Positions 8,376-8,966 of a stretch of DNA of 64,000 bases are shown piece by piece. Positions within the stretch are counted from its first letter, which is position 1, and every line of letters starts with the position of its first letter. Position numbers and translations under genes: made by a program. The notes under the pieces are model-generated. The model was given only the letters and a program-made list of their open reading frames with translations, was not told where the DNA came from and did not search any database. Location: NCBI RefSeq assembly GCF_017348835.2, contig NZ_CP071375.1; one strand, given 5' to 3'. The stretch comes from Escherichia coli (GTDB taxonomy: Bacteria > Pseudomonadota > Gammaproteobacteria > Enterobacterales > Enterobacteriaceae).

Positions 8376-8513
8376 TGGTTATCCCCGCTGACGCGGGGAA
8401 CATAAGTTCGACAACTTAAAAAATGATAACAAGTCCGGTTTATCCCCGCTGATGCTGGGAACATAATAAAAAATTTAACTAGTTCAGTTTATCCCTGTTT
8501 TTACAAGGAATAT
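8376..8513 (-). CRISPR. Degenerate CRISPR remnant (about 3 decayed type I-E-like repeats; first spacer 32 bp)
   Basis: Repeat-like units at 8376-8403 (tGGTT-ATCCCCGCTGaCGCGGGGAACat), 8436-8464 (CGGTTTATCCCCGCTGatGCtGGGAACat) and a weaker one at 8485-8513; first spacing is exactly 32 bp. Confidence 0.65.
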
Positions 8514-8966
8514 TAACTACACTCGATGTCTTTAGAATAAAAGACAATACGAATCGCACTTTATCAATTTACACTTAAAGTATGAACTGGATATCTTTAT
8601 TCATAAGAACTATTCATCAACAGCGTATAGAGGCGGTTATGTAAAACCACTCATTAGCCTCAAAACAAAGACAAATTTCCAGATTTATTACTTACTCAAT
8701 GAATAACAAGCTTAAAAAATACACTGTCATTCTAAAGAAAAAATTAACAGGCATTAATTAATATTAAAAAAATAATATATTAAAATTTCTTAACGGTTTA
8801 AGGATTATACAAATAACACTTTGATTAAATTTGATTTTTTGTATCGATAATTGTGAACTTATCTGGCATGGGGAACTATTTTGAACATAAGGTGTTACGT
8901 GGATATGTTGCTTATTACAAGTACTGCTAATATAAAAACTTGAGAAAGAGATAACGGGTTATATGG

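Follow-up and report, generated by a model that had tools for sequence, protein, structure and literature searches.

Background

Between ygcE and ygcF, the CRISPR-II locus of Escherichia coli contains two arrays, CRISPR2.2 and CRISPR2.3, which have been described as "separated by 0.5 kb" (PMC3903273). These names belong to the nomenclature of Diez-Villasenor et al. 2010, as given in PMC4489801, PMC3903273, and PMC3737337; the name "CRISPR2.2" has also been applied to a different locus (PMC4524480). CRISPR2.2 has three repeats and two spacers that have been termed "invariable" (PMC4489801), and it is present in K-12, O157:H7, and BL21 (PMC3737337). Leaders have been reported for CRISPR2.1 and CRISPR2.3 only (PMC3903273). 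In addition, type I-E loci with regulatory mini-arrays of degenerate repeats have been documented (PMC10120712), and degenerate terminal repeats have been described as "anchors" (PMC3903273; PMC2886076), a near-perfect sequence being unusual in a true terminal repeat (PMC2886076).

Here we describe the degenerate repeat block that lies downstream of ygcE in a 64,000-nt stretch of E. coli DNA (hereafter, the window). With a probability of roughly 0.88, this block is the mini-array CRISPR2.2, already recognized as a vestige on the ygcE side of the CRISPR-II locus, and is a non-functional fossil and an occasional substrate for recombination. It resembles the published array in its site between ygcE and CRISPR2.3, its three repeats and two invariable spacers, the gap of ~0.5 kb, and the lack of an assigned leader, and it differs only in three rare point substitutions of the window, including one that disrupts base pairing in the stem of unit 2. 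A preliminary description of this DNA had recognized a known two-array architecture at the locus, in agreement with the published layout of CRISPR-II.

CRISPR2.2 is real but unremarkable and already known. As a discovery it counts for little, since the literature has included it since 2010 and it serves in CRISPR typing of E. coli. Its value lies in being a clean natural case of a leaderless array frozen in time and a recurrent substrate for repeat-to-repeat deletions; its first repeat (unit 1) can also usefully serve as an orthology anchor when the history of the CRISPR between ygcE and queE is reconstructed across Escherichia.

Organization of the CRISPR-II locus

The locus is ordered as ygcE, the degenerate mini-array, 0.45 kb of AT-rich DNA, the intact array, its leader, and queE (Table 1). 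CRISPR2.2 starts 46 nt past the ygcE stop codon and ends 453 nt short of the first CRISPR2.3 repeat. The window matches E. coli strain PE164 without a difference at positions 5330-11966 and over its first 521 bases. The transcribed type I-E repeat is GAGTTCCCCGCGCCAGCGGGGATAAACCG and the + strand carries its reverse complement; the intact array and the remnant therefore both point leftwards, with the leader on the right. Transcription of CRISPR2.2 is predicted to have the same sense as that of the intact array, and would thus read the - strand.

The GC-rich hairpin behind ygcE is kept in alignments across Escherichia species, including E. albertii and E. whittamii, and went uncalled in the terminator scan because it lacks a T-run. 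At the other end of the locus, leader 2.3 is 94-98% identical over its full ~338 nt to those of K-12-like strains, the B2 strain SF-166, strain E69, and E. albertii. The match to E. whittamii, the leader of which has a deletion, is 90.2% over 183 nt.

Table 1 Features of the CRISPR-II locus and their positions in the window
Feature	Position	Strand	Evidence or remark
ygcE (FGGY-family sugar kinase)	6851..8329	+	ORF; annotated in the identical PE164 stretch; left boundary of the CRISPR-II locus
GC-rich hairpin CCGGGC-N8-GCCCGG	8340..8359	.	Read directly; just 3' of the ygcE stop codon
CRISPR2.2 unit 1, leader-distal terminal repeat, 1-nt deletion, hairpin intact	8376..8403	-	
CRISPR2.2 spacer 1, 32 nt	8404..8435	-	Invariant in E. 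coli
CRISPR2.2 unit 2	8436..8464	-	Covariance model, folds, alignment
CRISPR2.2 spacer 2, 20 nt	8465..8484	-	One rare substitution in this strain
CRISPR2.2 unit 3, most diverged repeat	8485..8513	-	7-bp stem and 4-nt loop kept
AT-rich inter-array DNA, 453 nt, 27.8% GC	8514..8966	.	Not detectably a leader
Isolated 15-nt half-repeat-like fragment CTGGCATGGGGAACT, repeat positions 14-28	8863..8877	+	
Intact array CRISPR2.3, 6 repeats, 5 spacers (32, 33, 32, 32, 32 nt)	8967..9301	-	Annotated CRISPR in PE164
Leader 2.3, AT-rich, conserved across Escherichia species	9302..9639	-	
queE (ygcF), right boundary of the locus	9640..10311	-	ORF and PE164 annotation

Degenerate repeat units of CRISPR2.2

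The preliminary description had placed three degraded repeats with a 32-bp first spacing within 8376-8513. Three units were indeed recovered there, and the first remnant spacer that it quoted matches spacer 1 exactly. Unit 1 reads TGGTT-ATCCCCGCTGACGCGGGGAACAT with one base deleted, unit 2 reads CGGTTTATCCCCGCTGATGCTGGGAACAT, and unit 3 reads CAGTTTATCCCTGTTTTTACAAGGAATAT. Their ungapped identities to the 29-nt consensus are 23/29, 24/29, and 17/29, respectively. Elsewhere, neither strand of the 64-kb window matches the consensus better than 19/29.

A covariance model was constructed from eight intact I-E repeats (from the window, CRISPR2.1 of the same strain, E. albertii, E69, and a Klebsiella array) and searched against the whole 64-kb window with filters off. 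Units 1 (33.1 bits, E = 5e-9) and 2 (30.7 bits, E = 4e-8) were confidently recovered, whereas unit 3 (7.9 bits, E = 5.4) is not significant alone; the refuting outcome named in the preliminary description, units that align to the I-E repeat no better than chance, therefore did not occur for units 1 and 2. Homology to the 29-nt type I-E repeat (repeat cluster 2) in at least two direct repeats is provided by units 1 and 2, with unit 3 in register. Unit 3 is full-length, lies 49 nt after unit 2 in the same register, and is 20-22/29 identical to it, and as a putative repeat it is convincing only in the context of this length, register, spacing, and likeness. The 32 nt of spacer 1 fit the 32-33-nt spacers of I-E arrays (61-62-nt period), and the 20 nt of spacer 2 do not.

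Standard annotation overlooks these units. An Rfam scan of 8200-9700 at E<=10 gave just two spurious matches, both within the intact array, Tandem Repeats Finder returned no rows, not even for the intact array, and a PGAP annotation of CRISPR2.2 was absent in every record opened. Since CRISPR2.2 is missed by PGAP and tandem-repeat tools, automated scans will keep rediscovering it.

A Cas6e-type hairpin with a 7-bp stem and a 4-nt loop is predicted, by folding only, for unit 1, unit 3, and the common allele of unit 2. The RNA fold of unit 1 (-15.1 kcal/mol) has the same stem as an intact repeat. In unit 3, the stem is preserved via two compensatory double changes and one G.U pair, and in the window's allele of unit 2, a rare A-to-T substitution (+ strand, 8456) replaces a G.U pairing in the stem with a mispair. 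In the common allele, units 2 and 3 both have an intact 8-nt handle, AUAAACCG. By our own estimate, pairing survives five random transitions in the stem ~5-13% of the time, and the retention of the hairpin in unit 3 is suggestive only as a sign of selection.

Some of the differences from the intact repeat are common to several units. Units 1 and 2 share a G-to-A change adjoining the loop, and all three units have a T at transcribed position 2, giving the ...AACAT end of T-type repeats (PMC3737337), whereas the intact array is A-type. Judging from the sequences, part of the apparent degradation is shared variant sequence and not independent decay.

AT-rich DNA between the arrays

The inter-array DNA has a GC content of 27.8%, falling to 20% in its core, compared with 50.8% for the whole window, which bears out the earlier statement that AT-rich DNA separates the isolated fragment from the repeat block. 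A type I-E array is expected to be flanked by an AT-rich leader carrying promoter and integration signals; the DNA beside unit 3 is AT-rich but resembles neither leader 2.3 nor leader 2.1 beyond shuffled controls. In local alignments, the inter-array DNA scored 14 against leader 2.3 (shuffles 13.5+/-1.8) and 12 against leader 2.1 of PE164 (shuffles 12.0+/-1.7). We reject its identification as a decayed copy of either leader, because these alignment scores equal those of the shuffled controls.

A relic of a mobile element was also considered and rejected, as the AT-rich DNA has no terminal inverted repeats or target-site duplication and no phage or genuine plasmid homolog; its "plasmid" matches are only three mislabelled E. 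coli chromosomes. Open reading frames in 8514-8966 do not exceed 26 aa and none is conserved, and the top small-ORF candidate, a 20-aa frame at 8582-8644, is shortened to 13 aa in E69. Rfam families had no match in the inter-array DNA, promoter-like sites occur at the level of shuffled controls, and the terminator scan called none. Within E. coli, alignment shows 8514-8690 to be nearly invariant and ~8690-8880 to be strikingly variable.

In K-12, a 347-bp "promoter island" has been listed between ygcE(+) and queE(-) (2901670_347, U00096.2), and it is H-NS-bound in all of the ChIP studies compiled (PMC3661553, Table 1). The end of ygcE lies at 2,903,374 in NC_000913.3. Converting the coordinates with an offset between U00096.2 and U00096.3 that we take to be ~1,975-1,977, the island would start ~272 nt past the ygcE stop codon and would correspond to window positions ~8600-8948, a stretch of the inter-array DNA rather than of the leader. 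Like the H-NS-bound promoter islands of K-12, the inter-array DNA is very AT-rich and has no coding capacity, and by this conversion it maps to 2901670_347 (PMC3661553); the promoter-island concept applies to the DNA between the arrays, not to the repeats.

Origin of CRISPR2.2 within the genus

To place CRISPR2.2 in the genus, species-representative genomes were scanned once for a degenerate ygcE motif to obtain outgroups, so that the sample covers the motif-bearing species. In E. albertii, the locus holds a single three-repeat array, the first repeat of which is unit 1 with the same 1-nt deletion, running straight into leader 2.3. E. whittamii has a solitary repeat, a hybrid of unit 1 with the same 1-nt deletion, directly on the leader, and Escherichia sp. 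MOD1-EC7003 has a degenerate unit 1 followed by an array. In the B2 strain SF-166, unit 1, again with this deletion, is fused to a two-repeat array. In all four (E. albertii, E. whittamii, MOD1-EC7003, and B2), unit 1 is at the same distance from ygcE and the AT-rich DNA is absent. Given that unit 1 begins single arrays or solitary repeats across these lineages, we regard it as an end repeat of the locus that is orthologous throughout the genus. A divergent "E. coli", SCPM-O-B-8794, has no CRISPR downstream of ygcE. Strain E69 has a two-array form in which unit 1 lacks the deletion and unit 3 is identical (29/29) to the common allele, followed by a three-repeat array; its AT-rich DNA is only 66-89% identical. 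At ygcE, the identity is 92.8% for E69 and 92.2% for E. albertii.

Unit 1 is comparable to the degenerate terminal "anchor" repeats described elsewhere (PMC3903273; PMC2886076), in that it is an end repeat that is degenerate yet conserved and outlasts turnover of the array; the difference is that in CRISPR2.2 a whole three-unit block is stranded and not one end repeat. In the single CRISPR2.2-3 array of B2 and other strains, the repeat nearest ygcE is likewise unit 1 with the 1-nt deletion, but there it is fused to CRISPR2.3-type sequence, without AT-rich DNA and without units 2-3.

Three different unit deletions were observed. Exactly one 61-bp unit is lost in an O157 strain (recombination of unit 1 with unit 2), 49 bp comprising unit 2 and spacer 2 are absent from E69 (unit 2 with unit 3), and in B2 strains unit 1 is fused to a CRISPR2.3 repeat, with units 2-3 and the AT-rich DNA absent. 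Recombination between repeats thus probably removes entire units at times, or the full stretch as far as the intact array.

We lean towards the view that CRISPR2.2 is the stranded leader-distal end of one ancestral array, since unit 1 is also the terminal repeat of the single arrays of E. albertii, E. whittamii, and B2. In this scenario, a single ancestral array between ygcE and queE would have ended in unit 1 as its original, degenerate terminal repeat, and an insertion of AT-rich DNA would have cut the oldest units off from the leader, after which the stranded units would have drifted. The shared unit 1, the nearly perfect last repeat of CRISPR2.3 (8967-8995), and the lack of a detectable leader beside unit 3 favor such an origin.

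However, repeat-to-repeat deletion is easy, so the single arrays could be secondary, and two ancestral arrays stay a serious alternative with a chance not far below even. CRISPR2.2 would then be an independent second array, the leader of which decayed within the AT-rich DNA, and the single arrays would result from recombination between unit 1 and CRISPR2.3. Such deletions demonstrably occur, B2 being nested within E. coli, and E69 has both arrays and yet is as diverged at ygcE as E. albertii. The T-type ends (...AACAT) of the CRISPR2.2 repeats, as opposed to the A-type repeats of CRISPR2.3, and the position of the AT-rich DNA where a leader would be expected are also consistent with two arrays. 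On the other hand, the AT-rich DNA is not similar to either known E. coli leader, separate deletions would be needed in four lineages, and the most diverged repeat, unit 3, would be leader-proximal, the reverse of the usual gradient. The nearly perfect sequence of the last CRISPR2.3 repeat argues against an independent origin as well.

The isolated repeat-like fragment

Within the AT-rich DNA, the preliminary description reported a further repeat fragment at 8864-8878. The sequence is there and is rare in shuffled DNA, but it lies one position to the left (8863-8877) and has two mismatches to the majority repeat, with one mismatch to the variant repeat at 9028-9056. Matches of this quality are expected ~0.15 times per 64 kb. 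In dinucleotide-preserving shuffles of the AT-rich interval, with a match to any 15-nt stretch of the repeat counted, 13/15 was reached in 0/300 and 12/15 in 1/300. The full-length covariance model did not recover the fragment at E<=10.

The site varies among strains. K-12, 042, and MDP9-27 have CTGGCATGGAGAACT (12/15), to which the window adds one extra G (13/15); the O157, O26-like, and DG342-2 alleles are CATATATGGAGAGCT (8/15), and that of E69 is CGGGGGTAGAGAGTT (8/15). By parsimony, the ancestral match could have been anywhere from 7 to 13 of 15.

We consider it more likely than not that the fragment, which is absent from the published description of CRISPR2.2, is a genuine half-repeat relic. 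In addition to the rarity of the match in composition-matched shuffles, which extends to the 12/15 of the K-12 and 042 alleles, the fragment is on the same strand as the repeats, and its positions 14-28 exactly complement the well-kept positions 1-13 of unit 3. As in degenerate terminal repeats, it keeps the leader-proximal half only, the half that usually survives (PMC2886076). A chance resemblance sharpened by one private A-to-G change, with no repeat relic at all, is the less favored but still appreciable possibility: the ancestral state is ambiguous, the O157, O26-like, DG342-2, and E69 alleles match at just 8/15, and the extra G of the window is in no other aligned sequence. The failure of the full-length model to detect the fragment, the lack of the left half of the repeat, and the distance of 89 nt, instead of 32, to the next repeat are also consistent with chance. 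A single repeat split by an insertion of ~365 bp, with its left half in unit 3 and its right half in the fragment, was rejected, because unit 3 has a complete hairpin of its own and the spacing after the fragment is wrong.

Potential function of CRISPR2.2

Most likely, CRISPR2.2 today does nothing, and it would persist by inertia as a leaderless fossil beside AT-rich DNA that is H-NS-bound in K-12. A protospacer for spacer 1 was found neither in 50,697 phage records (best E>=0.3) nor in true plasmids, the matches there being mislabelled chromosomes only. For neither spacer did the 64-kb window, or the 32 kb around the PE164 cas operon, contain a self-target, defined as a canonical PAM plus a full seed and a match of 10 nt or more. 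This operon, which is outside the window and ~16 kb or more off, is reduced to cas3, casA, a casB stub, and cas2e, and is without cas6e, cas7, cas5, and cas1. Since PE164 is without cas6e, crRNA processing is impossible there.

The units may nevertheless be better preserved than a neutral fossil might be, and the hairpins together with one comparison of rates leave a small door open. When E69 is compared with the K-12-type allele, 3/90 sites differ in the units and 18/145 in the immediate flanks (Fisher p = 0.018; a post hoc test on one lineage pair). Further E69-like alleles were not found among the 5,426 complete E. coli genomes searched, where the top match was 81.7%.

Selection could accordingly be supposed to keep the hairpins and spacer 1, with a read-through or de-repressed transcript giving rise to a Cascade-loaded crRNA-like RNA that would be regulatory or locus-preserving from outside the cas operon; we regard this as very unlikely. 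The RNA of such a maintained mini-array, predicted to consist of spacer 1, a 5' handle from unit 2, and the hairpin of unit 1, would regulate a chromosomal target or safeguard the system from within Cascade, a role to which we give an equally small chance. Hairpins kept in all three units, the handle in the common allele, the greater conservation of the units relative to their flanks against E69, and the precedent of regulatory type I-E mini-arrays speak for it. The known I-E mini-arrays, however, lie between cas3 and cse1 (PMC10120712) and not at such a distance from the cas operon, and the searches described above recovered no target with a PAM, a full seed, and at least 10 bases. Spacer 1 is deleted in the O157 strain, the unit set has been lost in B2 and several Escherichia species, and ~24% of E. 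coli genomes are without the CRISPR2.2 region. The adjoining DNA is H-NS-bound, and no conserved small ORF lies nearby, the 20-aa candidate being cut short in E69.

CreA/CreTA and the cas3-cse1 mini-arrays (PMC10120712, PMC8501985) share with CRISPR2.2 the degenerate repeats around a fixed spacer and the retained hairpins. In contrast to them, CRISPR2.2 is outside the cas operon and has no PAM-plus-seed target in the regions searched; there is also no toxin candidate in its vicinity, and many lineages do without the block.

Distribution and age of CRISPR2.2 in E. coli

Among the complete E. coli genomes surveyed (5,426), 4,123 (~76%) contain 80% or more of 8330-8966 with an identity of 93-100%, and the 231-nt core (8330-8560) is found in 4,121, mostly at 98.3% identity to the window. 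The three units, the 1-nt deletion of unit 1, and both spacers are common to K-12-like, phylogroup A, D (042), O26-like, and other strains. The presence of the same units and spacers in ~76% of genomes indicates that the decay is old and fixed, and not particular to this strain. The preliminary description had the ygcE-proximal array eroded by deletion and mutation, and suggested that alignment with other E. coli would reveal the repeats and spacers that were lost. Erosion is evident, but it is ancient and species-wide, and some of the changes are shared variants; the alignment revealed no unit or spacer lost in this strain, only three rare substitutions relative to the species consensus (one each in unit 2, spacer 2, and unit 3).

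That CRISPR2.2 decayed recently in this strain from a fuller second array is scarcely credible: the rarity of the three substitutions and the mere 9 genomes that are >=99% identical to the window over the 231-nt core would fit such a history, but the three units, the 32- and 20-nt spacers, and the 1-nt deletion recur in strains of phylogroups A and D and in others, even E69, with its ~7% divergence at ygcE, retains spacer 1 together with units 1 and 3, and a longer version of CRISPR2.2 was present in none of the genomes examined.

Without a recognizable leader, the Cas1-Cas2 integrase would have no entry point and CRISPR2.2 would never gain spacers, and its content would for this reason be the same in nearly every strain. 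Variation in spacer content between strains, as would result from ongoing acquisition, was not seen, both spacers being the same in all aligned strains. Spacer 1 is identical in all aligned E. coli that retain it; the one strain without it is the O157 strain that lost 61 bp, and in E69 it carries two substitutions.

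CRISPR2.2 repeat units and the intact array

CRISPR2.2, the degenerate type I-E mini-array beside ygcE, was compared with its counterpart in E69, a divergent strain with the two-array form. Differences were found at 3 of 90 sites in the units and at 18 of 145 sites in the immediate flanks (Fisher p=0.018, a post hoc comparison), and AT-rich DNA outside these flanks has just 66% to 77% identity to E69. Unit 3 deviates from the repeat consensus at 12 of 29 positions; two pairs of compensatory changes, together with a single G.U pair, preserve its 7-bp stem and 4-nt loop, and the common E. 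coli allele is identical to that of E69 at all 29 positions. Transcribed position 2 is T in the CRISPR2.2 units, which are thus T-type, as is CRISPR2.1 of the same strain. The intact array next to the units (CRISPR2.3) is A-type (GAGTTCC). One spacer of the intact array has 33 nt (repeat spacing of 62), and the remaining four have 32 nt.

Positions in the window of the features discussed
Feature	Position	Remark
yqcE	~5547-6824	MFS transporter
Deletion junction in yqcE	near 6235
First yqcE ORF	5620-6267
Second yqcE ORF	6294-6824
CRISPR2.2 units	8376-8513	T-type
Unit 3	8485-8513
Well-kept part of unit 3	8485-8497
Near-invariant segment	8514-8690	inter-array
Presumed promoter island	~8600-8948	inter-array
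Hypervariable segment	~8690-8880	inter-array
Isolated fragment	8863-8877	inter-array
Intact array	8967-9301	A-type
33-nt spacer	9057-9089	intact array

DNA between the arrays

Positions 1-13 of the repeat are represented by the well-kept part of unit 3, and positions 14-28 by the isolated fragment, a half-repeat-like piece in the inter-array DNA. The two pieces are exactly complementary halves of a single repeat, lying ~365 bp apart, and may have originated from one split repeat. Numerous substitutions and small indels make one inter-array segment hypervariable among E. coli strains; the segment adjoining it is close to invariant. By coordinate conversion, we take part of this DNA to be K-12 promoter island 2901670_347 (ygcE/queE). 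That island is bound by H-NS in every ChIP data set cited, and a second promoter island is listed at queE/ygcG (PMC3661553).

The locus in PE164 and other strains

In PE164, a strain identical to the window over the stretches compared, all that is left of the truncated type I-E cas operon (10972-15611 of the cas-region record, beyond the window) is cas3, casA, cas2e, and a stub from the 5' end of casB; cas7, cas5, cas6e, and cas1 are absent, and the whole system is thus defunct in this strain. An IS3-family element adjoins cas3. Relative to K-12, 73 bp are deleted from yqcE in the window, which breaks the gene into two ORFs; RefSeq annotates PE164 yqcE as a frameshifted pseudogene.

In strain MDP9-27, cysJ-queD directly abut a 3' stub of ygcE, and the ygcN-ygcE block has therefore been deleted. 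In OkiPb01688, an IS1 stands in place of ygcE and of most DNA between the arrays. Three PLSDB entries (NZ_OL790696.1, NZ_CP141089.1, and NZ_CP134663.1) are E. coli chromosomes of 4.8 to 4.9 Mb entered as plasmids, which produce false "plasmid" matches with chromosomal queries.
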